A stretch of DNA of 64,000 nucleotides from an uncultured Bacilli bacterium. GTDB lineage: Bacteria; Bacillota_I; Bacilli_A; RF39; UBA660. Shown one piece after another: positions 13,916 through 34,915 of this stretch (within the stretch, counting starts at the first letter, position 1; each line of letters begins with the position of its first letter). The DNA is taken from the NCBI GenBank assembly GCA_934182615.1, contig CAKPRO010000009.1, positions 5,282 to 69,281 of the forward strand. The letters run 5' to 3'. The notes beneath the pieces are model-generated. The model was not told the DNA's origin. It was given only the letters and a program-made list of their open reading frames with translations, and ran no database searches. Made by a program: the position numbers and the translations under genes.

Positions 13916-13942
13916 ATAAAGAAAAAAATAACATAGAATATA

Positions 13943-15034
13943 TTAATCTACATTATTTACTTTTATAGTACTTACATACTTTATATTTAATACTTTGTCA
14001 TATAGTAATTGTTTATTTTTTAATAATTTTATAAAACTATATATATAGAAAATTATAAATATTATAAATGTATTTAATCCTATTATTACTAATAGATAAT
14101 TAGGTATATTTTTAGCTAATAATACTTCTAGATGTATCACTAGTGAAAATATTCCATAGTAGTATAGATAGATAAAGATATTTCTTAAAGTTATTCTAAG
14201 TAATCTCTTATCTGGTACTTCTAATGATACATTTATTATTTTTCCAAAGATAGTTTGGTTATGATTAAAATATGGAATGATAATAAAGTAAAGAACCGCT
14301 AGTGAAAGATTTATATATTTATTATTTATTAAAAATGATACTAGCATTATCATTAGTAGATAGATAAAGATATCTCCTATAAAGAGTGTTATTCTTCTTA
14401 AGGAAGATACTTTTTGTCCTTCTTTTAATGATTTGGTATCGATATCTTCTCTTGTTGGTAAATGTTTTTGGATAGGACTTATTATTAAATATCCCAGAAG
14501 ACCTCCTAGTGTGTTTATTAATAGGTCATCCACATCAAAATTACGATATGCTCTAGGATAGATATAATATAGTCCTGTTAACTGAGTTAATTCAAAGAAT
14601 AGTGATATTAAGAAACTTATAATTATTGTTTTCTTTAATGAACATTTATAGTAGTATCTTAGATAGACTCCTAATGGCATAAACATTATTATATTAAAGA
14701 TAACAGTATATATACTAGGTATAGTTATTATTTTTAGAATGTTTATTTGTTTTAATTCTATTAGGTCCTCTACTATATCTTTTATGAATGTTAATGGAAT
14801 TAACTGAGGATTAATCACTTTCATTTTGATTACTTCTTCTTTGGTTGGAAGAGGTAATATTACTAAAAAGTAGATTGTTATTAGATATAAGATAAAGGAA
14901 TATATTATTAAAGTTCTTAATTTGTTTACTGATCCATAATGATGATATTCATATATTATATATGGTAATGTTATTAATAAGGCTAAAAAAGGAAAGATTA
15001 TTAAAGCTGTTTTTATTGGTACTAAATAGCTCAT
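13943..15034 (-). CDS. VanZ-family membrane protein with an extra C-terminal TM region
   Basis: FELTQL...FDVDDLLINTLGGLLGY VanZ-type motif. Multiple hydrophobic segments. Confidence 0.7.
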   Translation of the reverse strand: MSYLVPIKTALIIFPFLALLITLPYIIYEYHHYGSVNKLRTLIIYSFILYLITIYFLVILPLPTKEEVIKMKVINPQLIPLTFIKDIVEDLIELKQINILKIITIPSIYTVIFNIIMFMPLGVYLRYYYKCSLKKTIIISFLISLFFELTQLTGLYYIYPRAYRNFDVDDLLINTLGGLLGYLIISPIQKHLPTREDIDTKSLKEGQKVSSLRRITLFIGDIFIYLLMIMLVSFLINNKYINLSLAVLYFIIIPYFNHNQTIFGKIINVSLEVPDKRLLRITLRNIFIYLYYYGIFSLVIHLEVLLAKNIPNYLLVIIGLNTFIIFIIFYIYSFIKLLKNKQLLYDKVLNIKYVSTIKVNNVD

Positions 15035-15035
15035 C

Positions 15036-17099
15036 TTATCTCTCCTTTATTATGGTTTTACTACAGTAGTACGTTACTAAGAAATATCCTCCATAGATTA
15101 CTACTAGAAATACTGCTGTTAATATTATTGATGATAATAATGATTCTGTTCCCATTGTTTTTAAGATATAGTTAGCAAACTCTATTCCAAATATTGAGTG
15201 AATTATAGCTAGTAATAATGGGAATAGGAAGAATACTGCTATCTGTTTAAATAAGGCTTTGTTAATCATTTTCTCATCAGTTCCTATTTTTCTTAACATA
15301 TTAAATCTTTCTTTATTATCAGTACTTTCTGATAATTCTTTTAAGGCTAAGATGGCCGCACTTGATATTAAGAAAATTATTCCTAGATATAGTCCTACAA
15401 ATGTTACCATGGCTCCTAGTCCTATGGATGATGCATAGATATCTATTTTAGTATTATATGATAATAAGGTATCTTTGTTAAAATGGTTATTTATTATAGT
15501 ACTAACTATATCTTCAACATTTTCTTTTTCTTCTTTAGTGTCTGCTTGATAGTTAGCTGCTAAAATATTTTTATATGGATGAATACCTTCTAAGGCATTA
15601 TCTGGTAATATTATTACTCCTGTATTAGTAGCACTTCCACTTAGTTCGATAATGCCATCTTGACATTCTTGATATTTTGGATAGTAGTTTTTACTATTTA
15701 TAGTTAGTTTGGTATTATTTTTTAAGGCTATATTTCGAATGTCCGCCATCATCTTATAGTTAGATATAATTACATATTCATTATCTTTTAGAGTTAATTC
15801 TTTTTTGTTATATAGTTTTGCTAGACGATTGTAGTCACTTAATTTTACTAAGTCTTCTCTTACGTTATAAGCTAGTGTGGGATAATCTTTTCCTATTTGT
15901 TCTATTTGGTCTCCAAAAGAATCTTTTAGGGTTATTTCTTCTACTCGATATGTATTTATATCTACTACATCTTTTAGATACTTGTATACATCTAATCTTT
16001 GTAAGGTATCTTTGACAGTGGTGTTATAATCCTCTATTATCTCTTTTGAAAAGTTTTCTTGTTCTTCTTTAGATAATGGTTCTTGTAATTTTGAGAACTG
16101 AATATCAACAGGTGCTAAATCTTTTAGATTACCTGATAGAGAGTTTTTTATAGATAATGCTGATGAAAAGATACATATAGTAAAGAATAGCATTAGGCAT
16201 ATTATTGTCATTGAAAAGACAGTGGTATTTATTTTGCTACTTATTTGACGAACGGTAAAACTATTTAGTCCTTTATAGTAGTATTTTTTTAGATGCATTA
16301 CTATCTTTAGAATTAGACCTGATAGTGACCAAAATATTAGAAATGTTGATACGCATCCTAGGGCTATAGGCAACAATATTCCTCTTATGGTATTCATTAG
16401 TGGTGAAGAGCTAAATCCATCTGTTACTAGATAGTAAGCGTATGATAGTGCTATAACAGCAATTATGAATACTATAGTGCAAATGATAGGATTTTTTAAT
16501 TTTACTTTTTCGGATTTTTTATTACCATGTAATAGATCTATTAGTTTACATTTATTTACAATTATGGTGTTAAATATCATTACTATTAGATACATTATGC
16601 TAAAGTATAATAAGGTTTTTAGGGCCGCTGATGATGAAAATGTAAACTGGAATTTTGTTAAGTCGGCTTCAAACATATTGGCTACTAAGATACTCATTAG
16701 TTGTGATAAAACTATTCCTAGGGCTAAGCCAACTCCTAAAGAGATAACTCCTATTATAAGAGTTTCAAAGAAAAGGATTAGAGATATTTTTCTTTTGGAC
16801 ATTCCTAAGGTTAAGTAGATTCCAAATTCTTTGTTTCTTCTTTTTATGAGAAAACGACTGGCATAGATTATTAGAAATCCTAGAATGAATGAAACAAAGA
16901 CACTTACTCCTCCTAGGATGGTTGTCATTAGTCTTATTATTTCACTTGTTGATGATGATACATTTAGCATTACTGTTTGACTATCTATGGCATTGAAGAC
17001 GTAGAAGATGGCTACTCCTAGTACTAGGGTAAAGAAATAGATGGCATAATCTTTGATACTTTTGGTTATGTTTTTTATAGACAATTTAAAGAGCATCAT
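15036..17099 (-). CDS. BceB-type ABC permease (FtsX-like, large extracellular loop)
   Basis: 687 aa with multiple TM segments either side of a ~200-aa hydrophilic loop. Overlaps the ATPase gene. Confidence 0.85.
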   Translation of the reverse strand: MMLFKLSIKNITKSIKDYAIYFFTLVLGVAIFYVFNAIDSQTVMLNVSSSTSEIIRLMTTILGGVSVFVSFILGFLIIYASRFLIKRRNKEFGIYLTLGMSKRKISLILFFETLIIGVISLGVGLALGIVLSQLMSILVANMFEADLTKFQFTFSSSAALKTLLYFSIMYLIVMIFNTIIVNKCKLIDLLHGNKKSEKVKLKNPIICTIVFIIAVIALSYAYYLVTDGFSSSPLMNTIRGILLPIALGCVSTFLIFWSLSGLILKIVMHLKKYYYKGLNSFTVRQISSKINTTVFSMTIICLMLFFTICIFSSALSIKNSLSGNLKDLAPVDIQFSKLQEPLSKEEQENFSKEIIEDYNTTVKDTLQRLDVYKYLKDVVDINTYRVEEITLKDSFGDQIEQIGKDYPTLAYNVREDLVKLSDYNRLAKLYNKKELTLKDNEYVIISNYKMMADIRNIALKNNTKLTINSKNYYPKYQECQDGIIELSGSATNTGVIILPDNALEGIHPYKNILAANYQADTKEEKENVEDIVSTIINNHFNKDTLLSYNTKIDIYASSIGLGAMVTFVGLYLGIIFLISSAAILALKELSESTDNKERFNMLRKIGTDEKMINKALFKQIAVFFLFPLLLAIIHSIFGIEFANYILKTMGTESLLSSIILTAVFLVVIYGGYFLVTYYCSKTIIKER

Positions 17100-17853
17100 T
17101 TATGTCTCCTCCTAGTAAGGTTACGACATCTATTATTTTATCAAAGAATTCTTTTCTGGTATCATTTCCTTTACGAATTTCGTTATATATTTTACCATCT
17201 TTTATGAAGATTATTCTAGTAGCGTAACTTGCGGCATAAGCGTCATGAGTTACCATTAGAATAGTGGCTCCTAAAGCATTATTTAGGTAGGTTAGTTTTT
17301 CTAGAAGCATTTTTGATGACTTAGAGTCTAGGGCTCCAGTTGGCTCGTCTGCGAGTACTAAGCATGGATTTGTTATTATGGCACGAGCTGCTGCTACTCT
17401 TTGTTTTTGTCCTCCACTCATTTGGTAAGGATATTTTTTTAGTACTGATTCGATATCTAGTTCTTTTGCTACTTTCTTTATTCTTTTATCTATTTCTTTG
17501 GGACTTACATTTTGAATTGATAAGGCTAGTGCTATATTTTCATAGGCTGTTAAGGTATCTAATAAATTGAAGTCTTGAAAGATGAAACCTAAGTCTTCTC
17601 TTCTAAACTTGTTTAAATCATTTCCTTTTAGTTTTGTTATGTCAGTTCCTCCTACGAAAATATGTCCGGCGGTTACTTTATCAATTGTGGATATGCAGTT
17701 TAGTAATGTTGTTTTACCTGAACCTGAAGAACCCATGATAGCGACAAACTCTCCTTTTTCTACTTCAAATGATATGTTATCTATGGCTTTAGTTAAACTT
17801 GATTTACTTCCATAGTATTTTTCAATATTTTCTATTTTTAGTATATTTTCCAT
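17086..17853 (-). CDS. BceA-type ABC ATPase
   Basis: Walker [10 protein letters not shown], signature MSGGQKQR, Walker B LVLADEPT. Confidence 0.9.
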
Positions 17854-17943
17854 ATTATTTTCCTTCCTTTCGTAATTAATAATACTAGATAATAGGATAT
17901 TTGTCGTAAGTTTAATATTACAGTATATTACTTTTTTGTAAGG

Positions 17944-18963
17944 TTAGTCTTCTGGGTGATAAAGTTTATTTTTACCAAAGGTTATTTTGACAATGGTATA
18001 TTCTTTTTCTTCAGATTCTATCTCTATTTTATGGCCTAGTTTGGTACATAATTTTTTGGCTATGTATAGACCCATGCCTGTTGATTTAATTTTATCTCTG
18101 CCATTAGTACCGGTAAATGATTTTTTGAAAACATTTGGGATATCACTTTTTGGTATGCCAATACCGTTATCTTTGATAAATAAGGTTATTTGACTATTAT
18201 CTTCAGTAGCTTTTATTTGGATATAGGAGTTTGGAATATCTTTTTTGTATTTGATGCTGTTATTGATAATTTGATTTAAAATGAATTCTAACCATTTGGT
18301 ATCGGTATAGACTTCGGTATTTTTTATATCGACGATTAGGTCAATTTTATTTTCTAAGAGGTCATCTTTATTTTTAAGGGCTACTGATGAGATTATTTTT
18401 TCTAGTTTTACTTTTTTGAAGATAAAGTCTTCACTGGTATAGTTACTTCTTACATAATAGAGGATTTGGTCGATGTAGTTATCTAGTCTTTTTATTTCTT
18501 CAATGTATTCTTTTGGTACTTGATTTTTATGATTATGGGTCATAAGTATTAGACTTGATATTGGTATTTTTACTTCATGTATCCACATCTCAATATAATC
18601 TTTGAAGTCTTTGGTGCTATTTATGTAACTACTGACATTTTCAATCATTGATTTGTTTATGTCGCACATGACGTTATATATTAATTCTTCTTCGTAAGTA
18701 TTTGGTTTTGGTATGGTTTCTAGGACTAGGTATTTTTTATCTAGATTTTCGGTATTGGTTATGATGGTGTTATAGAAGGTTCTTTTTTGGAAATATGATA
18801 TTAAGAGGGCTATGATTAGTGTTAGTAGTAGTAATACTATGGTTACTATTATTAGTCCCTCTGGTACTTTGAAGGCTATGTCTAATAGGGTTATTAGAAT
18901 TATTGATATGATAGTGATAATGATTATGGTTATTTTATCTTTTAGATAGTTTGTTAATTTCAT
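17944..18963 (-). CDS. BceS-like intramembrane-sensing histidine kinase
   Basis: Two N-terminal TM segments with almost no loop, H-box HEVKIPIS, and a G-box DNGIGI...GMGLYIAKK. Confidence 0.85.
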   Translation of the reverse strand: MKLTNYLKDKITIIIITIISIILITLLDIAFKVPEGLIIVTIVLLLLTLIIALLISYFQKRTFYNTIITNTENLDKKYLVLETIPKPNTYEEELIYNVMCDINKSMIENVSSYINSTKDFKDYIEMWIHEVKIPISSLILMTHNHKNQVPKEYIEEIKRLDNYIDQILYYVRSNYTSEDFIFKKVKLEKIISSVALKNKDDLLENKIDLIVDIKNTEVYTDTKWLEFILNQIINNSIKYKKDIPNSYIQIKATEDNSQITLFIKDNGIGIPKSDIPNVFKKSFTGTNGRDKIKSTGMGLYIAKKLCTKLGHKIEIESEEKEYTIVKITFGKNKLYHPED

Positions 18964-19622
18964 AATAGTATATATCCTTGTCCTTTTCTTGTTTCTATGG
19001 CATTTGGATAACCAAAGTCCTCTAGTTTACTTCTTAGTCTACTTATATTTACGGTTAGTGCATTATCATTTATGTATTCTTCATTATTCCAAAGGATGGT
19101 CATTAATTCATCTCTTGATACAATTCTGTTTTGGTTATTTAATAAGTGCTGAAAGATTAACATTTCATTTTTGGTTAGTTCTAATTCTTTATTATTACCT
19201 GATAAGGTACCACGTGAGGGCGATACTTCTAAATCTTTATATTTCAGTACTTCAGTACTATTATCTAATCTTTTAAAGATATTTTGTATTCTTAGTAATA
19301 GAATGGTTGGGCTATAAGGCTTGGTTATGTAATCGTCTGCTCCATAAGAGATTGATAATATTTCATCGGTTTCATTTGCTCTTGAGGTTACCATTATTAC
19401 GGGAATATTTGATTCTTTCCTTATTTCTTTAAGTAACTGCTCACCATTTTGATATGGTATATTTATATCTAAGAGAATTAGATCTATATTACTTTTTAAT
19501 ACTTCTTCTTTGGCATTTGTGAAGTCTTTTAGTATTAATGCTTCATAGCCAGCATTTACTAGTAGTTCATATAATTCTTTAGATATTATGGTATCATCTT
19601 CAATTATCATTATCTTTTTCAT
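18960..19622 (-). CDS. OmpR-family response regulator (BceR-like)
   Basis: Receiver domain (IIEDD...LDINIP...GADDYITKP) plus winged helix (LTKNE...LTVNISRLRSKL). Overlaps the kinase gene. Confidence 0.9.
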   Translation of the reverse strand: MKKIMIIEDDTIISKELYELLVNAGYEALILKDFTNAKEEVLKSNIDLILLDINIPYQNGEQLLKEIRKESNIPVIMVTSRANETDEILSISYGADDYITKPYSPTILLLRIQNIFKRLDNSTEVLKYKDLEVSPSRGTLSGNNKELELTKNEMLIFQHLLNNQNRIVSRDELMTILWNNEEYINDNALTVNISRLRSKLEDFGYPNAIETRKGQGYILL

Positions 19623-19935
19623 ATATTATACTTCCTTCTTTCTATAGTTATATTATATCATTGTTTTAATTGGTTTTATATTACAAGTTTGTAAGGTAGA
19701 AGAAAAAGACTTAGTACATCTTTGTGATGTGGGTAAGTCTTTGGTTTTTGTGAGAAGTCCGTAATGCACAAATCATATCTATCTGATTTTTTACTATTCT
19801 GTCCTTTCAAAATTAACTTTTTAAAATATGTAGTTAAAAAAGTATAATTTTGTATAATAAAATTCAACATAATTTTGCATATAAACTGTACAAATAGTAT
19901 AAAACAATACTTTGTCTACATAAATATATATTTTT

Positions 19936-20076
19936 TTAATCAAGATCCTTTGGCGTTTCGGATAATTCAGAATTTAATATTTCATAAAATCTTTCTCCAA
20001 ACGGTGTTATGTTATCTTTTTTATTATTGTCTTGAGTATCTTTAAATGCTTTTATTAAGTTTCGTATTAAACACAT
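19936..20076 (-). CDS. Small ORF, 46 aa (MCLIRNLIKAFKDTQDNNKKDN...), paralogue of 29668-29847; may be a remnant
   Basis: Below the ORF-track cutoff; translated by hand. The N-terminal ~21 aa are shared with the second copy. No clear SD here. Confidence 0.3.
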   Translation of the reverse strand: MCLIRNLIKAFKDTQDNNKKDNITPFGERFYEILNSELSETPKDLD

Positions 20077-20122
20077 AGTCTCGTCAACTCTGAATTTTAG
20101 TTACCTATATTAAATTTTTATG

Positions 20123-21775
20123 TCACACTAAACTAATAAACCCTACTTTATCACTACTGTAATCATCATCTAAATCAGCACCAGCATATACAATACCAAC
20201 AACTTCTCTTTTTTTATTTAAAACCGGGCCACCACTCATTCCATGTTTTGGAGAATCTTTAGTTACCCAAAATTCTCTTCCAAGAAAAGTATCTTTACCA
20301 ATTATTTTGGTTTCTATAATTGAAATACTCGTCCTATCAAAGTCTACAAAGCCCGGATAACCAACTAAATATACAGTATCTCCCATCATAGGTTTATTTT
20401 TTGAAATGTTAAAAAACTTACTATTAAAATTAATATTTTTGATACATAAAATATCGGTCTTATAATTATTTTCCTCTATTTTATAATTCAAAAAAAGTTT
20501 ACTCGTTTTATTTTTTAAATAAAAGAAAGGTAAATTTCCATCATCAGGTATAATAGGAAACTGTCTTAAATATTGAGTGTCATTTTCATCATAAATAAAA
20601 TCTTTAATGGTAGTTTTATTTATTAAAACATGAGTTGAAGTATGCAATATATTATTTTTTATCAGAAATGCTGTACCTTGAGAATCTTCAGCTTCTGACT
20701 GTAAAACAAAACATCTATCTTCTGTATACTTTTGAATTTCCAATATACTATCAACATCAAACAGTTCAACGCTAAATAGCTCGTTAAATTCTTTAGCATA
20801 TTTTAAAAACATCTTATCATTATAACCTCTTACCATTTTTAAATAATTTAATTTTCCTTGTAGCAAATTAAACATTTTATATTTTGCATCCTTTTCAGTG
20901 TCAAATTTAAAATTTTTAAAATTCTTTTGAGCTGTTATTATAAAGCCATATTTTTTTATGGAATAAAGCATTGCGCGAACTTCTTTTATATATTTTTTAT
21001 TTAAATTTAATTTAGTATTTACTATTACACCTGTTACCTCTTGACGTAACATTTTTTTTGAAAGTTTAGTTTTTGCATTATTTACTTTAAATCCTGTATT
21101 ATAACCACCATTAATTATTTTGATTAATCTATCAGATAAAACTATTTCACTGGATTGTTTATATGCTATTTGTAAAGGAAATTTATCACTATTTGTAGAT
21201 ATTGTTATATCATCAGCATATCTACTATAAATACATCTATTTTTTTTTGATAAATGTTCTAATTCTTTATCCATTTGATAACATATAATATTAGATATTA
21301 TCGGTGATGTTGGGGCTCCTTGAGGCAATTTACCATCTTTACAAACTATTTTTGCAAGAAAAGTAGCTAAATGCCTATTGAAATTAAAAGGTTTACCCAT
21401 AAACATTCCACGAACTCTACCAAAATGTATTGTATCAAAAAAATTTTCTAAATCAATATTTAATACAAATCTTTTTCCTACATGTTGACTTGCATTAGTT
21501 ACACAACTTCTGTTTTTTATAAAACCATGTTGAACATCTAAAAAATCATAACAATCATATAATAATGTTGCTAATCTTTGTTGTATTACTTTTAATTCAA
21601 TTGTAGGCGCAGAAATTTTTCTTATACCGCCATTTTTTTTAGGAATTTCAAAGCTTATATAATTTTCTTCTTTTACAAATAAAATATAATTTAAATATCC
21701 TTTAGATATATTTAAAATGCTACATAAATCATCAACGCTATCAATCTCTAAAAATATATAATTTTTATGCAACAT
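20123..21775 (-). CDS. Retron-type reverse transcriptase fused to a C-terminal trypsin-like serine protease
   Basis: RT motifs: NASQH (NAxxH), QGAPTSP, RYADDITIS, EVTGVIVN (VTG). C-terminal H/D/S triad candidates: TSTHVL, TDILCIK, GMSGGPV. Start set at the ATG 6 nt after SD gaggtg. Confidence 0.8.
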   Translation of the reverse strand: MLHKNYIFLEIDSVDDLCSILNISKGYLNYILFVKEENYISFEIPKKNGGIRKISAPTIELKVIQQRLATLLYDCYDFLDVQHGFIKNRSCVTNASQHVGKRFVLNIDLENFFDTIHFGRVRGMFMGKPFNFNRHLATFLAKIVCKDGKLPQGAPTSPIISNIICYQMDKELEHLSKKNRCIYSRYADDITISTNSDKFPLQIAYKQSSEIVLSDRLIKIINGGYNTGFKVNNAKTKLSKKMLRQEVTGVIVNTKLNLNKKYIKEVRAMLYSIKKYGFIITAQKNFKNFKFDTEKDAKYKMFNLLQGKLNYLKMVRGYNDKMFLKYAKEFNELFSVELFDVDSILEIQKYTEDRCFVLQSEAEDSQGTAFLIKNNILHTSTHVLINKTTIKDFIYDENDTQYLRQFPIIPDDGNLPFFYLKNKTSKLFLNYKIEENNYKTDILCIKNINFNSKFFNISKNKPMMGDTVYLVGYPGFVDFDRTSISIIETKIIGKDTFLGREFWVTKDSPKHGMSGGPVLNKKREVVGIVYAGADLDDDYSSDKVGFISLV

Positions 21776-21789
21776 ATTCATCACCTCAG

Positions 21790-21937
21790 TGTAAAAAGGA
21801 CTCATACATTGTACTATTATATTAAATAATAAATAGTATAAGGTATATTAAACGAAATAATTAATTTATAATACCTAAATGTAACTAACATTTTTTTAAC
21901 CATGGCGAAACACTCATGAGGTGCAGTCCTTTTTACA
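21790..21937 (-). ncRNA. Candidate retron msr-msd
   Basis: 13-bp perfect inverted repeat, tgtaaaaaggact (21790-21802) / agtcctttttaca (21925-21937). It brackets ~120 nt with several hairpins, and a G follows the 5' arm on the RNA strand. The 3' arm ends 15 nt before the RT start. Confidence 0.45.
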
Positions 21938-22216
21938 AGATAATATATTAACATAGATTTAGGTCTTTTACAAGCTTTTGCCTACTCTTCCATAAGAATT
22001 TCTAATTTATAATTAATTTTCAATTATTATATTCTTGTCAGTTATTTCTTCATGAACTTTAATATCAACATTATACTTCCTATTGATACCTCTATTTCAT
22101 CTGCAGTAATATTAAGCACAAGTTCTTCACTTAATAACTTAATATCATTTGCCTCATTTTTCCAAATTTCTCTTAAATTTATTATTTTTTCTAACCTTCC
22201 TAAACTATAATCCTTT

Positions 22217-23266
22217 TTAATCCTTCAAAAATTCTAAATATCTGCTATATTGATCAACTAGTATATTTTTTATGTATTGTTCCATATATTCATAATCAGG
22301 ATTATTGTTTTTATCTACTGGTAACAAAATTTTTTCTTTACTAATTCTAAAATCATTTATTTCTCTATTAAAACTATATTTATTTCCTATTCTTGAAACT
22401 ATGGCTGTTAAAAATAAATAAATATACTTATTATACTTATTATTTTTTAGTGCTGTAATATGATCACTACCAATAAAATCATATTGATGATAAAAGGTGG
22501 CCCCAACTGAACCACTATTAGCGATAGTTAAACAATTATTAAATTTTTTTCCTTCTTTGTTACTAATAAAATTATCTACACCATTATTCATCATTGTTGA
22601 GGAAATGTACGGAATGTTTCCTGCTTTATGATTGCTCTTTTTTAATCTTTTTCCTCTTTCAATAATTGAAAATATACAATTAATATCAAATTCTTTCCAT
22701 TGTTTTTCTGATAATTCAAGGATTTGTTTATATTCAATATTTGATATACTTTTATTACAATATTTTTTCACCAAATCTAATTTATCGTCTAATATTTCAG
22801 CTATACTATTTTCCATGTATTGATAATTTACTGTTTCATCGTCATTTATGGGAAGAATAATTTTCAATTTAGACAAATCCTTACTTGATAACTGATTTCC
22901 ATATGAAAAATTATCTGTATTTGCCATAATTATAACTTTAAAATATTCAGCTAAGTTTTTATTTAAGGTATGTTCTTTTAATATTAATGCATGAACTTTC
23001 ATATCCAATGAAGCCTTATACGGATGATAAAAAACGCTACCCAAAAATGAAACACTTATAAAATTTTCATAAACTCTAAAATTAGGGTTACTTGACTCGC
23101 AATATGAATCAATACCATTATTTGTATCTCTAACTGTTATTCTAGGAATTGATCCTGGCTTTAATTCAGACTTATTTATATAAGCACCTGTTGGTACTTG
23201 ATTTTCAGTTGTTTCAAAAATATCACTTATTCTAAATATTTTCCATTTGATACCATTATCATTCAT
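22217..23266 (-). CDS. Restriction-modification specificity subunit (HsdS/BcgIB-like, two target-recognition domains)
   Basis: Two similar halves, each ending in a conserved helical spacer. Overlaps the upstream methylase gene by 8 nt. Confidence 0.8.
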   Translation of the reverse strand: MNDNGIKWKIFRISDIFETTENQVPTGAYINKSELKPGSIPRITVRDTNNGIDSYCESSNPNFRVYENFISVSFLGSVFYHPYKASLDMKVHALILKEHTLNKNLAEYFKVIIMANTDNFSYGNQLSSKDLSKLKIILPINDDETVNYQYMENSIAEILDDKLDLVKKYCNKSISNIEYKQILELSEKQWKEFDINCIFSIIERGKRLKKSNHKAGNIPYISSTMMNNGVDNFISNKEGKKFNNCLTIANSGSVGATFYHQYDFIGSDHITALKNNKYNKYIYLFLTAIVSRIGNKYSFNREINDFRISKEKILLPVDKNNNPDYEYMEQYIKNILVDQYSRYLEFLKD

Positions 23267-25172
23267 TCTTATCACCTTCGGTCTCAAATAAATATCCTCT
23301 TCCGTGAGTAATCATATTAATTTCAAATGTTAAATAATCAGCTATAGCGTTTTCAAAACAATCATTATTGGGAATTTCATCATTGAAATAAAAGTAAGAA
23401 TGTAACCATTCATCTTCCGCTTCAACAGTCGTTTCTACACAAAATTTAGTTGGAGCTTCTATTTTATCAAACCATACATCCAACAAATGTTGCTTTCTAT
23501 CCTTTGCACGTTCAGTTTCGACAAGCCCTTTGTGTTTTTGAACTTCAAATCCATCGTCTGAAAAATCAATGAATTTACATAATTTGTTTCTATCATGTGG
23601 TATACCTGCGGTAAAAATTGCAATACAAGGATTTGTTCCAACTCCATAAAAAGTATTTGTGTTTAGAGTAATTACTCCCTCTAAAGTGTGATGTAATAAT
23701 ATACTTTCTTTTATATTTTGTTCATTCTTATTTTTACCCGTCATTGTACTTTGAGGTACAATGACAATAACCTTACCGCCAACTACGATGCTGTCTAATA
23801 AATGTTCAACAAAGCTAAGTTCACATTTTTCAGGGCTTATTTTTCCCATTGAGTATGGGGGATTCATCATGCCTACTGTTGCACCCTTTAATTGTACTTT
23901 GCTAGAATCCTGTGCTAAAAAATCATCACATATTAGATTACTTTTCCCATCGCCACGCAAAATCATATTTGTAGTTGCAATAGTAAACATATATGGTTGA
24001 AGTTCAAAGCCATGTAGTTGGTTCCTTTTAATTGCCATCTTTTCCTGATTATTAGATGTTTTTCCAAGCATGTCGTGCATAGCTGAAACAAGGAATCCAG
24101 CCGTTCCACAGCATGGATCCAACACCACATCTGTAGATTTCAACTCTATTAAATCGCAAAATAAATTGCATATATGTTTTGGTGTTAAAACAATTCCCAA
24201 TGATTGCCCATCTCCACCAGAATAACTCATAAATTCTCCATAAAATCTACCCAAATAGTCTTCTGATGTCTGATTATATCTAATAGTTTTATATAGCTTG
24301 TTATATAAATATTCAGTATAAAATTTTAATGGGGTTTTACCTAAAATATCGTTTTTTTCATTCAAAATGACAGTGTCTTTTATTATAGCAAATTGTGATA
24401 AAAGTTTATCTTTCTTTGTTTCTGGAGATACTTGTGATCGATCTAAATTATCTCGTATTGCATTATAAATTTTCAAACCATCTGTTTTTAATTTGTCACC
24501 AATTAAATCGTCAATAGAGAAATTCTTATGTTCTATTTCTTTTAAAGCCAATAATATTCCACTTACAACCAAAGGCTTGTCTTTATCGCTTAAATTACCA
24601 TAATTTCTTAAATATTCATGCAATTCTTTTGCATCTTTTAGTATTTCTTCAGTCGTCTTTTCATCATCTGTGTTTTCCTTTAAAATTTCTCTAACATAAT
24701 ATTCATCAATATTATTCTCATTAAAAGAAATAAAACTTTCTACTTCCGGTAAATCTATAAAATATTCTCTACCATCTAAATATATTGGCTTTATGACGTG
24801 ATGTTTTTCATCTCCGCTAATTCCAAATGCAATAGCTTTTTTGTAATTAGTGTTTTCTAATATGTGATTTGCATAAAAATATGCCCCATTTAAGGCATAA
24901 TCAGTTATTGATGATACGCTTAAATTTAAAATACCATTTTCATCATATTTTGCTTGTTTATCTGTGGAATACTTGTCTTCAATTACTAAAACAAAATCTT
25001 TTACAACCCCTACATATTCTGGAAATCCCACATTACCTGTGCCTTTTTTTGATGCAGTTTTTAATGCATAATCTAATTCTTTAATATTGCTTCCTTGTGC
25101 ATCTAATGTTATTCCAGCATCTTTTAATAAATCATAAACCCACAAATCAGTTCTAACTTCTTTTTTTGCCAT
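23259..25172 (-). CDS. Fused PD-(D/E)xK-like nuclease plus gamma-class N6-adenine methyltransferase (BcgIA-like, type IIB candidate)
   Basis: N-terminus GFPEYVGVVKDFVLVIEDK (E...ExK), AdoMet motif VLDPCCGTAGFL, catalytic MMNPPY. There is no HsdR-like helicase gene anywhere in the window. Confidence 0.7.
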   Translation of the reverse strand: MAKKEVRTDLWVYDLLKDAGITLDAQGSNIKELDYALKTASKKGTGNVGFPEYVGVVKDFVLVIEDKYSTDKQAKYDENGILNLSVSSITDYALNGAYFYANHILENTNYKKAIAFGISGDEKHHVIKPIYLDGREYFIDLPEVESFISFNENNIDEYYVREILKENTDDEKTTEEILKDAKELHEYLRNYGNLSDKDKPLVVSGILLALKEIEHKNFSIDDLIGDKLKTDGLKIYNAIRDNLDRSQVSPETKKDKLLSQFAIIKDTVILNEKNDILGKTPLKFYTEYLYNKLYKTIRYNQTSEDYLGRFYGEFMSYSGGDGQSLGIVLTPKHICNLFCDLIELKSTDVVLDPCCGTAGFLVSAMHDMLGKTSNNQEKMAIKRNQLHGFELQPYMFTIATTNMILRGDGKSNLICDDFLAQDSSKVQLKGATVGMMNPPYSMGKISPEKCELSFVEHLLDSIVVGGKVIVIVPQSTMTGKNKNEQNIKESILLHHTLEGVITLNTNTFYGVGTNPCIAIFTAGIPHDRNKLCKFIDFSDDGFEVQKHKGLVETERAKDRKQHLLDVWFDKIEAPTKFCVETTVEAEDEWLHSYFYFNDEIPNNDCFENAIADYLTFEINMITHGRGYLFETEGDKNE

Positions 25173-25362
25173 AATACATATTCTCCTTCATAATTTTTTC
25201 TTCTATAGCCTCTAATACAAATTTATTAAAGCTATAATTTTTTCTTCCATTTTTCTTTTTTATTTTTTGAACATAATCTGAAATCTGAAAAAACAAATTC
25301 TTATCTAATCTTAATAAATAAGTTTCCTTTTTTTCATTCTCATTAAGATCTTGTTTTTTCAT
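25153..25362 (-). CDS. Small ribbon-helix-helix-like protein (possible controller of the RM operon)
   Basis: YLLRLDKNLFFQISDYV...SFNKFVLEAIEEKI looks like strand-helix-helix. Overlaps the methylase start by 20 nt. Confidence 0.4.
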   Translation of the reverse strand: MKKQDLNENEKKETYLLRLDKNLFFQISDYVQKIKKKNGRKNYSFNKFVLEAIEEKIMKENMYYGKKRS

Positions 25363-25520
25363 ATTTTCACCTTCTTTACTGTGATATCTTTATATCTTGA
25401 TATAATGATATCATATTTTTGAAATTTAATCAAGAGATTGGGATTATTCCTATAAAATAATTTTGCATAGAAACACAAATTCAGTGCTGGCCATGCAACA
25501 AACACTATTCTACTAACTAA

Positions 25521-25547
25521 AAACACTACCATTTCTGATAGTGTTAA
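25521..25547 (-). terminator. Hairpin aacacta/tagtgtt with a short U-run (weak terminator)
   Basis: 7-bp stem with a 10-nt loop. Lies between the junction promoter and the RHH gene. Confidence 0.35.
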
Positions 25548-25635
25548 TTACTTTAATAATATCTTTTTAATCTTAATAATCCATTTTTTTCCATAGTTAT
25601 TTGGTTTTAGTTTTTATACATTTGCTTTTTTTGGC

Positions 25636-25864
25636 CACCACCTGAAGTTATTATATCATAGTTTTTTTCCATATATGACTATATGATTATTTTTCTAATT
25701 CTATTTATATAATACTATTTCTCTATACTAAAATAATATTAGTATATAGTTATTGCTTATATATAATAGATGTAATAGGCATATTGTTATTAGACCCTAG
25801 GCTAATAACAACACTAATAAGACTTACATAGTAAGGCTTATAGTGAACATAATAAAATATATAT
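25636..25864 (-). repeat. Junction element J2: hairpin pair + extended -10 promoter + SD (direct repeat of 29853-30079)
   Basis: Aligns end to end with J3; the first 32 nt and last 45 nt are identical. TGaTATAAT on the minus strand (25650-25658). Hairpins at 25786-25809 and 25812-25855. Confidence 0.85.
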
Positions 25865-25866
25865 AA

Positions 25867-26170
25867 TTATTTATTATTAACTATCTCATCTAATTTACTT
25901 CTTATAATACTTTCTTCTCTACTACCATTAGTAGTTAATCTTATTAATGGTATATTATATTTAGATAGAATATCATTCTTTAATATATCTCTTTCTTTTT
26001 GTTTATTATCTTCTTTATGATATTTATATCCATCTACTTCTACCGCTAATAATGGTATTTTACTTATTTTATTATATATTAAGAAATCTATATGAGTATT
26101 ATGGTGAGAAGCATATTTTCTTTCTTCTTCTGTTAATAATGTCTTATCTTTTATTAATATATTTAAAATT
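25867..26170 (-). pseudogene. Start-less DUF2726-like fragment (about 100 codons)
   Basis: Hand translation gives ...HIDFLIYNKISKIPLLAVEVDGYKYHKEDNKQKERDILKNDILSKYNIPLIRL..., which matches the DUF2726 pattern. No ATG, GTG or TTG in frame. Begins right at the stop of the upstream gene. Confidence 0.5.
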
Positions 26171-26713
26171 TTATTTATGTTTTCTTTTATACAAGTATAC
26201 TCCTCCTGATATTACTCCTATACCTAAGATTGTGTTTAATAAACTATTACTATCCTTTTCATCTTCAATATTATTATCTTCAATATTTTTACTAGTGGAT
26301 ATAATGCAACTTCCATCATCAACCTCTGCTTCTGGATCATAGTTGTCTGCTGATGGATTTTTACATCCTAGTACATAATATTCACAGGTTCCGTCATCTT
26401 TATTTGCTGATGAATTATAGTTCTTTGCTGTTTCATCTGTGCATCCATATGTATAATAGATACAACTTCCATCATCTCTATTAGCACTAGAATTATAATT
26501 ACTTGCATTTTTGTCTGTGCACCCATAAATATAGGTAACTGTTGGTGTACATGTACAACTAGGACTTAAAGTACCATCATTACAAACCAATCTTCCAGAA
26601 CTACTACAGCCACTAACACCACCATGATGAGAACAACACCCTCTCGTTGCACTAACTTTTAATGGCATTAATAGTATAATGCACACTAAAATTACTATTA
26701 TTTTTTTCTTCAT
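26171..26713 (-). CDS. Secreted or membrane-anchored Cys-rich repeat protein
   Basis: Signal peptide, GCCSHHGGVSGC motif, 3x GC(T/K)D..A.NY(N/D)..A..DDG(S/T)C repeats, and a C-terminal TM segment plus KRKHK. Confidence 0.7.
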   Translation of the reverse strand: MKKKIIVILVCIILLMPLKVSATRGCCSHHGGVSGCSSSGRLVCNDGTLSPSCTCTPTVTYIYGCTDKNASNYNSSANRDDGSCIYYTYGCTDETAKNYNSSANKDDGTCEYYVLGCKNPSADNYDPEAEVDDGSCIISTSKNIEDNNIEDEKDSNSLLNTILGIGVISGGVYLYKRKHK

Positions 26714-26733
26714 TAAATATCACCTTACCACAA

Positions 26734-26779
26734 AAAAAGACGCAGCACAAAATCTATTAAATAGACCTGTACTAGCGTC
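26734..26779 (-). terminator. 46-nt hairpin terminator, copy 1 (near-identical to 29557-29603)
   Basis: aaaaagacgcagcacaaaatctattaaatagacctgtactagcgtc. On the minus strand, gacgc...gcgtc is followed by a run of seven T. Confidence 0.7.
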
Positions 26780-26875
26780 CTTATTTAATTATTTTTAATT
26801 CTTTTAATATTTTACCATGTTTTTGTTTACATTATCTTATTCTTTCTTTATTAATTTAAAATTTTGAATATTTTA

Positions 26876-27145
26876 TTATAGTTCATTAATTCCAGTAACT
26901 ATTTTGTTAACGACTTCAACTATACTATCATATACGACTTTTGAAATTTTATCATTAGAGCTATCAAAATCGGTAGACTTATTTATTTTAATAATATCAC
27001 CTTTTTTAAATTCCTTAAACAAAGCCTCATATAGTTTTTTACCATCCACATTTAGCGTACTTTTAGGAATTTCAAATATCTCCACATTTTCGCTTTTAAT
27101 AATATATTTGTCATTGTTATTATACATCGTATATATTTTTGTCAT
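26876..27145 (-). CDS. Small protein (89 aa) translationally overlapping the PHP-ATPase gene
   Basis: SD aaaggtgg before the ATG at 27145. Overlaps the upstream stop by 26 nt. No motif recognised. Confidence 0.5.
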   Translation of the reverse strand: MTKIYTMYNNNDKYIIKSENVEIFEIPKSTLNVDGKKLYEALFKEFKKGDIIKINKSTDFDSSNDKISKVVYDSIVEVVNKIVTGINEL

Positions 27146-29522
27146 ATCTTTTCCACCTTTCATTAATTGAAGCTATTCCACCTTCTATGTTATCGGCAAC
27201 AATTTTCAAAACATTACATTCTTCATCTTTATATTCAAGTGCACCATTTTGAATATATATTTTATCTTTTTCATCTTTACCCAAGAATATTACATTATCA
27301 ACATCTAAATTTACGATAAATTGTGGATTATGCGTTATCATAATAATTTGTCTATTCTTGCTCATATCATTAAAATCATTTAAAATATTTTTCTTTATGG
27401 ATGGTTGTGACACGTCATCTTCAGGTTGATCAATTATATATATTCTCTTATCATCAGTTTGGTTAGATATTAAATCAAAATAGATTCTAGAATTTAAACC
27501 TGATGATAATTCTTTTGTTACATCTTTATCTTTATCTTTGTTCCATTCATTTATTGCATTCTCAACAGAAAAAATATCGTTTATTTTATTATCTAATTCA
27601 TTTTTTAGATTTAATAACTTGTTATCGTAAGAAATTTCTTTACTTCTATTATTAAATTTATCTGGAATTGTATTTGGATCAATTGAATTTATATCTTTTA
27701 TACTTTTTCCTAATATTTCTTTAATTAAGTATATTAAATGATCATTTGATATTTCTTTTACCTTAGTTTTTGCGACGAATCTGTATTTTCCAACTATATT
27801 AAAGGATGTTGGTATTTTTTCTTCTTTGATATTTGGCTTATATTTAGTTTCTTTCCTACTCTTAATATAATAATTTATGATGTTTTCCGAAAAAATCTCC
27901 TTATTATTTTCATAATTTGATATTTTTTCTGTTTCATCCGTTTCTATTCTTTTTAGTTCTTTACCTTTTTTAGTGAACTCAGTATTGATTATATTGATTT
28001 TAGATATTTCAAGCAAATTTTGTTTATTTATATCGTTATATTTTGATATTAAAATTTTATAGTGGTCAACGCTATTTTTAATATACTCTTTATCTCCCTT
28101 CTCAAAGCAGTCATTATTCATTACTTCCAATAGCAATGAATTGATTGATTCAAGTTTTTCAATTATTTTATTTACTTCTTTTATTTTCAAATTAATATTG
28201 TTAATAATAGTATTAGTTATATTTTTAAAGCTTAGTGACTTTGAGTTTGAATCAATGATACATATACTAAAATCTATTATCTTATTGAATGCACTGGTTT
28301 TCTCTTCTTTATTTTTTAAAACTGAAATATAACTTTCAATTTCAGATTTATATTTTTTAATATATTTATTTACTGAAGGGGCAACAGGAAAAAAACTATT
28401 CAAGAAATTATCACTATTAAAGTTTTTATTTTCAAACATCTTTCTTATAGAGCCTTGTCCATTAAATTCAGAAATATTTGATTTTGGTATATGTGAATTG
28501 ATTTTTATATTTTTCTCATTCAAATACTCCTCATAACTATTTTTTATTTTATTATCATTTAAATAATTATAATCAGTTAACTTGTGAATTAATAGCGACT
28601 TTCCTATGGAATTATCACCTATAATAACATTGATTCCTTTAGAAAGTTTTATATTATGTTTATTTCCATTTATTTCTATATCTATACTATCCAAATATTT
28701 ATCTGTAACAGGGAAAAAGTTATTAACATAATTTATTCTTTTAGTGTTTGTCATAGCCATGGCTAAACCACGAAAGGTTGGTAAACATTTTAAATATGTA
28801 AATGAAAAATCATCGTTTTCCTCGGGATAATCGGCCCAAATATGGCAATCAGAACCTGTTATAAACTTCAATGTAATATCTTTATATTTTTCCCTGTTTC
28901 TTTCAATATAGTTTTTATTAAATATTTCGTTTATCTTTTTTTTAAATTCAAAGGCCTCAAAAAAATCCAAAAAGACCAATTCATCAAATTTTTCCTTTCC
29001 TAAACTCATGACATCATGATTTCTCGGCTCCTTGCTAGATAGGGTTGCTTTTTGATGGGCTATCATCACTACATTTAAATTAATTTCTTTTAAAATATCA
29101 AGATATTTACTTTCAGAAAATGAATTTAATTTGTTATTATCATACAATGGTTTTCCTTTATTTTTATCAAATATTTTACTTTGTATTTTACTTATTGCTT
29201 CTTCATCTGAATCATCAAATATTGTAATAACATGCAAAACTTTTTTATCATATGCCACCGAAAATTCAACTGCAGGAAAAACCTTTTTAATACTTCCTTT
29301 ATTCTCTTCATTCTTTAATCTTTTATATATATCAAAATCAAAGTTATCATGATCTGATATAGAGCACATATTTATTTTTCTTTCATTTAATTTTTCTATT
29401 AATAAATTTATGTTATCTATTGTCGATAAATCTACACGATCATCACTTTCTTTATGTTTTGACGCAAAAGAATGAATATGAAAATCCACTTTATTGCCTG
29501 TTTCAACTATCTTTTCAATCAT
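27120..29522 (-). CDS. PHP-domain phosphoesterase fused to an ABC/OLD-type ATPase (Ppl-like defence candidate)
   Basis: N-terminus DFHIHSFAS...SISDHDNF...AVEF (PHP). Walker A IIGDNSIGKS, Walker B IYIIDQPEDDVSQ, and IMITHNPQF. Confidence 0.65.
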   Translation of the reverse strand: MIEKIVETGNKVDFHIHSFASKHKESDDRVDLSTIDNINLLIEKLNERKINMCSISDHDNFDFDIYKRLKNEENKGSIKKVFPAVEFSVAYDKKVLHVITIFDDSDEEAISKIQSKIFDKNKGKPLYDNNKLNSFSESKYLDILKEINLNVVMIAHQKATLSSKEPRNHDVMSLGKEKFDELVFLDFFEAFEFKKKINEIFNKNYIERNREKYKDITLKFITGSDCHIWADYPEENDDFSFTYLKCLPTFRGLAMAMTNTKRINYVNNFFPVTDKYLDSIDIEINGNKHNIKLSKGINVIIGDNSIGKSLLIHKLTDYNYLNDNKIKNSYEEYLNEKNIKINSHIPKSNISEFNGQGSIRKMFENKNFNSDNFLNSFFPVAPSVNKYIKKYKSEIESYISVLKNKEEKTSAFNKIIDFSICIIDSNSKSLSFKNITNTIINNINLKIKEVNKIIEKLESINSLLLEVMNNDCFEKGDKEYIKNSVDHYKILISKYNDINKQNLLEISKINIINTEFTKKGKELKRIETDETEKISNYENNKEIFSENIINYYIKSRKETKYKPNIKEEKIPTSFNIVGKYRFVAKTKVKEISNDHLIYLIKEILGKSIKDINSIDPNTIPDKFNNRSKEISYDNKLLNLKNELDNKINDIFSVENAINEWNKDKDKDVTKELSSGLNSRIYFDLISNQTDDKRIYIIDQPEDDVSQPSIKKNILNDFNDMSKNRQIIMITHNPQFIVNLDVDNVIFLGKDEKDKIYIQNGALEYKDEECNVLKIVADNIEGGIASINERWKRYDKNIYDV

Positions 29523-29556
29523 ACTACTACTTCAACTCCTAACTTCTAGCTAATAT

Positions 29557-29603
29557 AAAAAGACGCAGCACAAAAATCTATTAAATAGACCTGTACTAGC
29601 GTC
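29557..29603 (-). terminator. 46-nt hairpin terminator, copy 2
   Basis: Differs from copy 1 by one extra A. Confidence 0.7.
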
Positions 29604-29667
29604 TTTCTTTAACTAATTTAAGTATATCAAATTATTTTTATTTAATCAATATATTTTGACAATTTTC

Positions 29668-29847
29668 TTATTCATCATCCTCAGAATAATAGTCATCATC
29701 TTCTAGTTCTTCTTCTTCAAAGTTAAATGAATCATACTTCTTTTCTTTTACTAATTCTTTTTGCCAATCTTCTAAATCATTATTATCTTTTTTATTATCA
29801 TCTTCTGTATCAGTAAATGCTTTTATTAAGTTCCATATTAAACACAT
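29668..29847 (-). CDS. Small acidic ORF, 59 aa (MCLIWNLIKAFTDTEDDNKKDN...EEEELEDDDYYSEDDE)
   Basis: Below the ORF-track cutoff. SD aggtggtg lies 7 nt upstream, and the junction promoter is directly upstream. Confidence 0.4.
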   Translation of the reverse strand: MCLIWNLIKAFTDTEDDNKKDNNDLEDWQKELVKEKKYDSFNFEEEELEDDDYYSEDDE

Positions 29848-29852
29848 AGTCT

Positions 29853-30079
29853 CACCACCTGAAGTTATTATATCATAGTTTTTTGTTATATATGACTATA
29901 TGCTTATTTTTCTACTCTTATTTATATAATTACTTCTCTATACTAAAATAATATTAGTATATATATCTACTGCTTATATATAATAGGTATCTTGGATACA
30001 TTTAATTAAGACAAGTTTACTTGGCTTAATTAAACACTAATAAGACTTACATAGTAAGGCTTATAGTGAACATAATAAA
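29853..30079 (-). repeat. Junction element J3 (complete copy): hairpin pair + TGnTATAAT promoter + SD
   Basis: See J2. Extended -10 at 29867-29875 (minus strand). Hairpins at 30001-30034 and 30035-30068. Confidence 0.85.
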
Positions 30080-30125
30080 GATAATATATAGGTATATTAA
30101 AACTAAGACTTGATATCTTAGTTTG

Positions 30126-30929
30126 TTATTTAGTTAATGTTAATGTTTTTATTTTAAATTCTTTAGTATCATAACCCCATGGATTAGATACTAATCTTAT
30201 ATTATTTATTATTATATCTTCTTCTTTATGATCATGACCATATATCCATACTGGTGATTTATATTCTTTAACTTCTGTATAGTAACAAGAGTTATTACCC
30301 CTACTATTACTTTTGTTTCTAAATGGTGGTACATGTGTTATTATTAAATCTATATTATTTGGTAAGTTATTATACCAAGATATGCTATCGTTATGTAGTT
30401 TTTGTATTTTATCTTTCTTAGATAATTCTGATAAGATAAATCTTGAATCATTCTGCATAGGATAGTTATATAGTTTATCTACTAATGTTACTGGTTTATA
30501 CCAAAGGGTATCTCCCGCTAATAAGAAGGTATTATAGGTATATAGTCCTTTAGTATTATTCGTTTTATCTAGTATGATTATATCGTTATTATCTTTAAAT
30601 ATTTCATTTAATCTATATACTTTATTCATACTATTATAGTTATATTCTTTAGCCATAGGATCAGTATAGATATATTTTATTACTGGTATATAGTATTCAT
30701 GATTACCTAGGACAAATATTACTTTTTTATAGTATTTTGAACATGAATATAATAGTTCACTCACTCTATTTATATCTTCATCGATATCTCCCGCTACTAC
30801 AAGGATATCTCCTTTTACTTGCATACTTATTTTATCTTGAACTAATTTATCTATTTTGGTTATGCTTTCATTTTTACTTATGTAGTGAGTTAAGTGTAAA
30901 TCAGATACGTAGTCAATGTTTAATTCCAT
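30126..30929 (-). CDS. Calcineurin-like metallophosphoesterase
   Basis: SDLHL, VVAGDI, LGNHEYY, THVPP and YGHDH motifs in the canonical order. Confidence 0.8.
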   Translation of the reverse strand: MELNIDYVSDLHLTHYISKNESITKIDKLVQDKISMQVKGDILVVAGDIDEDINRVSELLYSCSKYYKKVIFVLGNHEYYIPVIKYIYTDPMAKEYNYNSMNKVYRLNEIFKDNNDIIILDKTNNTKGLYTYNTFLLAGDTLWYKPVTLVDKLYNYPMQNDSRFILSELSKKDKIQKLHNDSISWYNNLPNNIDLIITHVPPFRNKSNSRGNNSCYYTEVKEYKSPVWIYGHDHKEEDIIINNIRLVSNPWGYDTKEFKIKTLTLTK

Positions 30930-30983
30930 GGTATTTTTCCTTTCTAGATGCTTATATTATATAGAAAGATGCAAATTATGTCA

Positions 30984-31015
30984 AATAAAAAACCATTGAC
31001 ACTTTTGCCTGTCAA
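30984..31015 (-). terminator. Hairpin ttgaca...tgtcaa plus U-run
   Basis: Read on the minus strand, 3' of the 31033 gene. Confidence 0.5.
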
Positions 31016-31032
31016 CAGTTTCTGCGGATAAG

Positions 31033-31782: not shown

Positions 31783-31803
31783 ATTTCCTCCTATTTAATT
31801 ATA

Positions 31804-34912: not shown

Positions 34913-34915
34913 ATA

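Follow-up and report, generated by a model that had tools for sequence, protein, structure and literature searches.

Integrative elements mobilised by serine recombinases insert within genes, recombine at identities of 2 bp and leave only very short flanking repeats (PMC5704250). Among the described systems, the Tn4451/Tn4453 family (TnpX, TnpV) and the serine-integrase integrative and mobilisable elements of Firmicutes resemble a block of 5,553 bp in a stretch of 64,000 nucleotides from an uncultured Bacilli bacterium (contig CAKPRO010000009.1; the whole stretch is called the window below). The block (20083-25635, minus strand) splits one copy of a repeated junction element, J, between the Shine-Dalgarno sequence (SD) and the start codon of its open reading frame (ORF). 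Its relatives carry a large serine recombinase (LSR) and TnpV, and the likeness extends to insertion inside a gene at a short core, accessory cargo and the absence of terminal inverted repeats (TIRs) and target-site duplications (TSDs) (PMC5704250). Unlike these elements, the window copy is without tnpV and is left with a recombinase stub of 11 codons. Its cargo is anti-phage defence, comprising a Type IIG restriction-modification (RM) system and a type XI retron, and not antibiotic resistance, and the primary target of its family is an amidase gene. The block is probably the immobilised remnant of an LSR integrative element, internally deleted and carrying two defence systems, which inserted at the SD of J as a secondary attachment (att) site and then decayed. 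Because the mechanism is already known, the block represents a further case of a known kind of mobile element and its novelty is modest.

Two other described systems are relevant. In secondary (pseudo) att integration by phage-type serine integrases, the comparable feature is a site with the core and one proximal arm (AAnTTCAGGTGGTGA) of the normal attB. In contrast to that process, the event here is deduced from an insertion that arose naturally and has since decayed, its right junction has a mutated core, and it targeted an SD belonging to a promoter cassette present in several copies. J itself is reminiscent of the PeSL promoter/stem-loop cassettes in hyperplastic regions of T4-type phages, since it consists of repeated intergenic terminator-like hairpins and promoters and coincides with the breakpoints at which a hypervariable region has gained, lost or exchanged DNA (PMC2839356). 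It is J and not the block that forms such a repeated promoter and stem-loop unit at indel breakpoints. J differs from PeSL in its location in a defence island of a bacterial chromosome, in its much greater length of about 600 nt and in its conserved 59-codon ORF, and the insertion of the block was not a J-by-J exchange.

The intact copy, J3 (29530-30125, minus strand), is located at a conserved edge of the hypervariable defence island. From 5' to 3' on the minus strand it comprises terminator-like hairpins, a palindrome, the promoter P1 (TGATATAAT), the SD and ORF59 (29668-29847). Behind the ORF come another promoter, P2 (29616-29651), and a leader with a hairpin and a T-run; promoters and hairpins were assigned from sequence only. 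The SD of ORF59, AGGTGGTGA (29852-29860, minus strand), matches the LSR att core AGGTGGYGA perfectly, and it is here that the J paralogue is split. The R half of this second copy (25636-25864, minus strand) holds the hairpins, palindrome, P1 and SD and corresponds to the attL-side host arm. The L half (20012-20082, minus strand) contains GA and a spacer, then the J ORF from the ATG to codon 22, and corresponds to the attR-side host arm. MAFFT alignment and repeat finding showed about 82-84% identity of 25636-25864 to J3 29853-30090 and 86-89% identity of 20012-20082 to J3 29783-29853. The two matches overlap by one base, a G on the minus strand (C29853), and alignment to more than 80 J3 orthologues of other strains places the abutment at this base as well. 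Related strains and loci are labelled with L-numbers below (e.g. L139, L148, L050) and positions in J with q-numbers.

Profiles of the sequence on either side of the break were searched with nhmmer --max. The profile of the 100 nt upstream (58 orthologues) matched only J3 and 25735-25636, the latter match ending at the last profile position with an E-value of 1.6e-17. The profile of the 190 nt downstream (77 orthologues) matched only J3 and 20081-20010, the latter match starting at profile position 1 with an E-value of 1.3e-13. No J homology was detected inside the block with either profile. The R and L halves were equally diverged from 88 J3 orthologues (87.5% and 87.7%), which fits an origin of both from a single older J paralogue. 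The hairpin part of the R half was 96% identical to 'R-type' copies in other strains. Since R-type paralogues with other truncations exist in many strains (junctions q192|q458, q222 and q257|q484), a complete second J copy is a reasonable ancestor of the split copy.

An earlier note on this DNA had proposed an R half with homology starting exactly at the break, both break points on the same J3 base with a 1-nt overlap, and a single inserted unit without TIRs. The homology start was confirmed by MAFFT, repeat finding and the upstream profile, and the shared base by the formal alignment and the orthologues. Profiles, alignment and colinear relatives agree that the block behaves as one unit between SD and start codon, and neither TIRs nor a target duplication were found at 20083 and 25635. 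The ORF half had been placed at 19936-20082; it does recur and ends at 20082, but its homology covers only 20012-20082 (71 nt, 22 codons). The remainder belongs to ORF46 (46 aa; 19936-20076, minus strand), a chimera according to a protein search: its first 22 codons are those of the J ORF, and its 28 C-terminal residues are those of a 72-aa protein that is widespread. Codons 19-46 originate from the 72-aa gene, which is unrelated to J and is joined at an 11-nt microhomology, AAAAAAGATAA (20012-20022). ORF46 is probably not a functional gene. The 3' part of the 72-aa gene with its downstream DNA (19743-20022, minus strand) is the right-hand remnant of another LSR element of about 7 kb. In L048-L055, the 72-aa gene is the last gene of this element, which carries HTH_36 and a large serine recombinase and is located beside the response regulator.

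Two weaker similarities within the block were rejected. MAFFT and a lenient BLAST search hinted at a degenerate copy of the J promoter and SD in its last ~46 nt; as a long homology this was discarded, since the profile search with --max returned nothing at E<=100 there. A possible short match of about 13 nt at the end of the block is now read as the P arm and core of the element. The repeat D11 (25400-25435 versus 29616-29651) is in register with the offset between the R half and J3. This register was judged coincidental, since the repeat is a generic promoter motif and occurs a third time, at 31793.

Intact relatives of the block (L148-L157) are flanked by the N-terminal fragment of an amidase gene at the left end and its C-terminal fragment at the right end. 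From the left end they contain TnpV, a 99-aa ORF, a 56-aa ORF on the opposite strand, a ribbon-helix-helix (RHH) gene (62 aa), the Type IIG gene, the specificity subunit (S), DUF4268, a variable gene, HTH_36, a 32-aa ORF, the LSR gene and variable right-end cargo. Their LSRs comprise the domains Resolvase, Recombinase and Zn_ribbon_recom. The target is the N-acetylmuramoyl-L-alanine amidase (Amidase_3/LysM) gene at the codons GG(E/D), with the core (A)GGTGGYGA. A scan with the L140-type LSR detected the family in 80 GTDB species of gut 'uncultured Bacilli/Tenericutes'. The attR was readable at 60 sites from about 60 species, and all 60 were located in amidase codons GG(E/D). The readable P arm of these sites was ..ATGGTAAnTnAAC, followed by six variable bases and GGTGGYGA. 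In L153, attL reads ...AATGCGGGAGGTGGCGAT|AGTCATTGTGTAAC... and attR reads ...ACACAATGACCATCACCAGGTGGCGAT|GGTGCAGAAG..., with the common core GGTGGCGAT and with attP arms that are inverted repeats. The core AGGTGGYGA was derived from both L153 sites and from the 60 attR sites. At L219 (~4050-4110), ...CCCCAGGTGGCGAT|GATCAAAGTGTAACAAATAAATGTATAACAATTAAA occurs downstream of an LSR gene, with right arm, core and left arm apparently joined; this looks like an attP-like joint or tandem elements.

The same core was present in J. Intact J reads AACTTCAGGTGGTGAGACTATG, and its perfect core match is the only one in the window of 64 kb, where chance alone would give 0.05. The part TTCAGGTGGTG of J is identical to the amidase attB of the conspecific strain L050, CAATTCAGGTGGTGGTGAAGG. 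As the break falls inside this single match, the SD of J is read as a secondary att site. The genes of the element are co-oriented with the core in the amidase gene as well as in J. The amidase gene of the window itself (Amidase_3/LysM, 2209-3606, minus strand) is intact and unoccupied and has the poorer core GGAGGCGGCGAA instead of GGTGGYGA.

Both termini of the block could be assigned to the family. The left end, or P' arm (25580-25635, minus strand), is in register with the attL of relatives. Within it, a stretch of 43 nt (25580-25622) shares 84% identity with the region that separates the amidase junction from tnpV in L148, L153 and L156 (E ~2e-9). The start of the block matched these true left termini only, and no match was found to the left ends of the elements in L048, L049 and L140. 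The right end, or P arm (20083-20122, minus strand), consists of the motif GGTAACTAAA (20096-20105) and 13 nt, ATTCAGAGTTGAC (20083-20095), and is in register with the attR of relatives. It reads GGTAACTAAA, ATTCAGA, GTTGAC and GA, after which J continues with GACTATG; the register with L139, L140 and L142 is exact. The 13-mer was not found elsewhere, and scans for the right end of the retron returned one chance match in genome contigs and none in viral contigs.

The internal gene order was colinear with the family. The segment 25502-22005 was 89% identical to L148 8671-12200, covering RHH, Type IIG, S and the N-terminus of DUF4268 to about codon 76. The first gene encodes an RHH-like protein of 69 aa (25153-25362, minus strand), upstream of the restriction enzyme and homologous to the 62-aa gene in L148; it had no Pfam match. 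It has its own promoter (25400-25435) downstream of a terminator hairpin at ~25495-25520. The fused restriction endonuclease/methyltransferase (REase/MTase) of Type IIG (BcgI-like; 23259-25172, minus strand) has 637 aa and was assigned to N6_Mtase (Pfam) and REase_MTase_IIG (6e-172). Its relatives, 93-96% identical, are located inside LSR elements, and one homologue is named 'BgcI subunit alpha' in the source annotation. The S subunit (22217-23287, minus strand) was assigned to Methylase_S (Pfam) and Specificity_II (9e-51). A fused REase-MTase with a separate specificity subunit places the system among the Type IIG/IIB (BcgI-like) RM systems. A frameshifted DUF4268 stub of ~76 codons (22016-22212, minus strand) represents the gene that follows S in intact elements.

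The end of an LSR gene was found next to this stub. The last 11 codons and the stop, RNSYGRVGKSL*, are located at 21968-22003 on the minus strand, at an internal deletion scar; the LSR of L140 ends with ...RNPYGRTGKKL*. The homology of the block to L139 and L140 at the DNA level begins at 22002/3. Searches of the window by tblastn with LSR, resolvase and tyrosine-integrase queries gave nothing significant. The statement of the earlier note that the window contains no recombinase is thus correct for intact genes but overlooked this relic. The window copy encodes no LSR, whereas its relatives do, and is filed as a decayed derivative and not as an active member of the LSR elements.

The remaining cargo is a retron. 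Type XI retrons were defined by Mestre et al. (2020) and described as being without recognisable non-coding RNA (ncRNA) (PMC7736814). The block encodes a reverse transcriptase (RT) fused to a trypsin-like protease (20123-21775, minus strand), which has 550 aa from the SD-preceded ATG; the mechanical ORF extends to 21805. It was assigned to RVT_1 and Trypsin_2 (Pfam) and to RT-Protease_XI of PADLOC (7.4e-157 over residues 18-551). An RT of the retron clade with a C-terminal trypsin-like protease corresponds to the definition of type XI. In contrast to the described type XI retrons (PMC7736814), a conserved structured region flanked by the inverted repeats a1 and a2 precedes the RT, and the window copy is right-end cargo of an LSR element. 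This candidate msr/msd (21790-21939, minus strand) has a1 (21925-21939) and a2 (21790-21803) around hairpins. The a1/a2 helix of 13 bp is kept in five relatives with 1-2 compensatory pairs, among them L139, L140, L142 and L145, while no Rfam match was obtained. The segment 22003-20096 was 92.6% identical to L139 and 78% identical to L140, and relatives of the RT were located at 63-93% identity. In L140 and L142 the LSR gene is directly followed by the retron and then by the 3' part of the Amidase_3/LysM gene. The L139 contig begins at the retron, hence only the retron and the amidase fragment are visible. The earlier description as a 'retron + RM' block holds for one inserted element, but the Type IIG RM and the type XI retron are two separate defence systems and not a single one.

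The insertion mechanism, which had been called unexplained, is explained by these relatives: the block carries the termini and gene order of the LSR family and breaks J at the att core motif. What the sequences show is the colinearity with the family, both termini, a right end in register with relatives, the core motif where J is broken and the recombinase stub. We infer that the LSR itself catalysed the insertion into J, as well as the order of the later deletions. An element with a type XI retron as right-end cargo would have recombined with a core look-alike, the SD region AACTTCAGGTGGTGA of the second J copy. The block has two internal deletions, one of tnpV and its neighbours up to a point upstream of RHH and one from about codon 76 of DUF4268 to the last 11 LSR codons. 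TnpV and the HTH_36/LSR module are thus missing from the block, which is why no recombinase is seen in the window. Both defence systems would have stayed intact in an element no longer able to move. The clean split without inverted repeats or duplication would follow from the exchange of serine integrases at a 2-bp crossover.

The exact crossover is uncertain, although the event falls within the 9-nt core either way. Third-codon variation in GGnGGnGAn across the 60 attR sites suggests that this part is host-derived, in which case the crossover would fall immediately to the left of GG, in the middle of the L153 attP. The corresponding exchange in J, TTCA|GG|TGGTGA, would lie 6-7 nt upstream of the break first noted. 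The TGGTG at the R junction would represent the P' arm (TGGCGAT in relatives), and the TGACGA at the L junction would be the TGGTGA of J with 2-3 substitutions. The predicted circular joint of the block is ...AACTAAAATTCAGAGTTGAC + G(G/A)CCAAAAAAAGCAAATG..., and the predicted empty site is ...ATAATAACTTCAGGTGGTGAGACTATGTGTTTAATACGAAAC... with R-type and L-type SNPs. For a full-length retron-carrying element of the L140 type, the expected P' arm would be TGGYG..CAAATGTATAA, ideally GCCAAAAAAAG.

Several observations weigh against the insertion of an LSR element at a secondary att site. The break lies inside the core motif and TIRs and TSD are absent, yet the attR-side core is degenerate (AGTTGACGA instead of the expected AGGTGGTGA) and no 2-nt crossover is identical at both junctions, which have one G in common. 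The 10-13 nt beside the core on both sides are unlike the P and P' arms of relatives. All 60 readable relatives are located in the amidase gene, and J as a target was seen in this lineage only. The left part of the block is of the L148 type (524-aa LSR) and the right part of the L140 type (552-aa LSR). As these are different subtypes, the element may be a hybrid of the two. The segment 25503-25576 resembles island sequence of L118 and not an LSR element. The earlier note had proposed to look in relatives for an unoccupied junction, with the flanks 20082 and 25636 contiguous, and for the same block at other junction copies. Neither was found: an empty R-L site was absent from 83 J copies and from 23 contigs carrying ORF46, and no circular junction or second copy of the block was detected elsewhere. 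The 83 copies are J P1-SD copies from the metagenome collection; 81 run on into ORF59 and two represent a different rearrangement.

Some of these points would also fit an illegitimate insertion at microhomology, in which a cell acquired a fragment cut from an LSR element, for example through transformation, and the fragment became joined to J without a recombinase. On this view, the site would resemble the att core by coincidence or through microhomology alone. This is consistent with the single nucleotide common to both junctions, the degenerate core at the right junction and the atypical proximal arms. The neighbourhood is also rich in illegitimate junctions, such as the 11-nt fusion in ORF46, the DUF4268|LSR deletion and the P1/P2 deletions of other strains. 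However, a random fragment is not expected to keep both native termini in nucleotide-exact register with 60 attR sites, nor to land in native orientation in a 9-nt motif that is present once per window where 0.05 is expected. We consider this explanation unlikely. Cassette shuffling by homologous recombination between J copies, with the block moved by crossovers in flanking J as in PeSL, was judged improbable. In its favour, the island of many strains contains dispersed J fragments whose breakpoints recur, and other cargos are flanked by overlapping J duplications of 59 nt (OKSA01000002) and 67 nt (L097); PeSL cassettes behave in this way in T4-type phages (PMC2839356). The profiles, however, revealed no J homology inside either block end, and the primary event between q273 and q273 therefore cannot be a J-by-J crossover. 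Shuffling could at most spread a copy that was already split.

Still less probable, and largely refuted, is that the two half-junctions are independent truncations or module boundaries which met at the SD and start codon by chance, with piecemeal accumulation of the DNA between them. The block is indeed a mosaic of at least four pieces, and R-type J copies are truncated elsewhere at q192, q222 and q257. This explanation conflicts with the same break base in more than 80 orthologues, the equal divergence of both halves, the assignment of the block ends to two termini of one element family and the presence of the block on all of the at least 23 contigs with ORF46. Other mobile elements were rejected. 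Group II introns have the boundaries 5' GUGYG and 3' AY; the termini of the block are unlike these, and its RT is of the retron type. An integron was dismissed, there being no tyrosine recombinase in the window and the block having its own promoters and several genes. A DDE/IS-type transposon was dismissed given that TIRs and TSD are lacking at 20083 and 25635 and no transposase is among the ORFs of the block.

An LSR element at a secondary att site, as preferred here, raises the question of whether J captures such elements recurrently. The promoter/SD/ATG segment of J could be a landing pad that mimics the amidase attB, with the captured defence elements transcribed from P1, but we regard this as doubtful. 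Two more independent split J copies have breakpoints that bracket the same position (q244-302 in OKSA01000002/OLQV01000172; q195-261 in L097). The cargo lies between imperfect direct repeats of the promoter/SD/ATG segment, which measure 59 nt (q244-302) in OKSA01000002 and OLQV01000172 and 67 nt (q195-261) in L097 and bracket the same SD/core region throughout. The split of J3 was seen in L091/L086 (OKSA01000002.1), L133/L121 (OLQV01000172.1) and L097, at loci too short to read the cargo. A further hint is provided by the remnants of the second LSR element at the other island edge and by the full LSR element in the island of L048-L055. If the landing pad were true, the defence island would be built by the decay of captured elements and would be functionally reminiscent of an integron platform.

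Partial J copies occurred several times per island, with recurrent breakpoints, and flanked modules in many strains. The second J hairpin (30001-30034 versus 25784-25811) differs in its letters between J3 and the R copy while the pairing is kept (TTTAATTAAGCC..GTCTTAATTAAA versus TTGTTATTAGCC..GGTCTAATAACAA), which suggests selection on structure as a terminator or binding site. The leader of about 60 nt, D16, is present after P2 at 29557-29619 and at 26734-26795 (minus strand; 91% identical), upstream of an 800-aa and a 180-aa gene. It folds as GACGC...GCGTC followed by a T-run, recurs before other island genes in many strains and may be an attenuator or regulatory leader; it had no Rfam match. 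A helicase gene with a DUF2726-like nuclease domain has left a 3' remnant next to the R half (25867-26165, minus strand). In strain L014 more of its upstream part is present, up to the contig start, which cuts off the 5' end; other strains carry copies of the remnant together with R-type J hairpins.

The window derives from the chromosome of an uncultured member of the gut Bacilli. It has a GC content of about 25%, and this AT-rich DNA carries housekeeping operons (two-component system, ABC transporters, P-type ATPase). A megablast search of 15000-35000 against the phage collection returned no match. The host belongs to very common, small-genome uncultured gut Bacilli; in exact-protein look-ups, the ABC protein was present in 1,675 collection blocks. 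The hypervariable island extends from ~19742 to ~29660 and contained different defence genes in every strain examined. In other strains these include Type I and III RM, BREX/Dnd-like systems, nSTAND, SLFN helicases and GmrSD. One edge is conserved in all strains examined as a metallophosphatase gene followed by J3 with its 59-codon ORF, and the other is conserved as a response-regulator operon. The island of the L048-L055 strains is occupied by a full LSR element. At the same island position, L049 (1-3060) has a homologous Type IIG gene and S, then a different RT of 411 aa and then an HTH_36/LSR element. This RT is 28% identical in the RT core, and the pairing of RM beside an RT thus recurs with a different RT. 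Rfam identified a DUF3800-I RNA at 33833-33957 (plus strand; 65.6 bits, above the gathering score), which abuts a DUF3800 gene (33953-34741, minus strand). The pair is kept at the island edge in other strains, and no RT ORF adjoining the RNA was seen in the ORF list of the window. A second, unrelated repeated intergenic element, D4, is present at 8209-8294 and 13841-13926 with 88% identity. Its copies flank a segment that differs between strains (L005 versus the window) and may mark another variable locus.

With its assignment to the LSR family, an apparently mechanism-less insertion becomes the product of an ordinary, known mechanism. For type XI retrons, the region flanked by a1 and a2 offers a candidate ncRNA. 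The family represents widespread amidase-targeting serine-recombinase elements in small-genome gut Bacilli, which swap their defence cargo, among it BcgI-like RM, the type XI retron and Fic/HD proteins. The block would be an example of how defence islands grow: a defence-carrying mobile element arrives at a secondary att site, its mobility genes are lost and its defence genes are kept.

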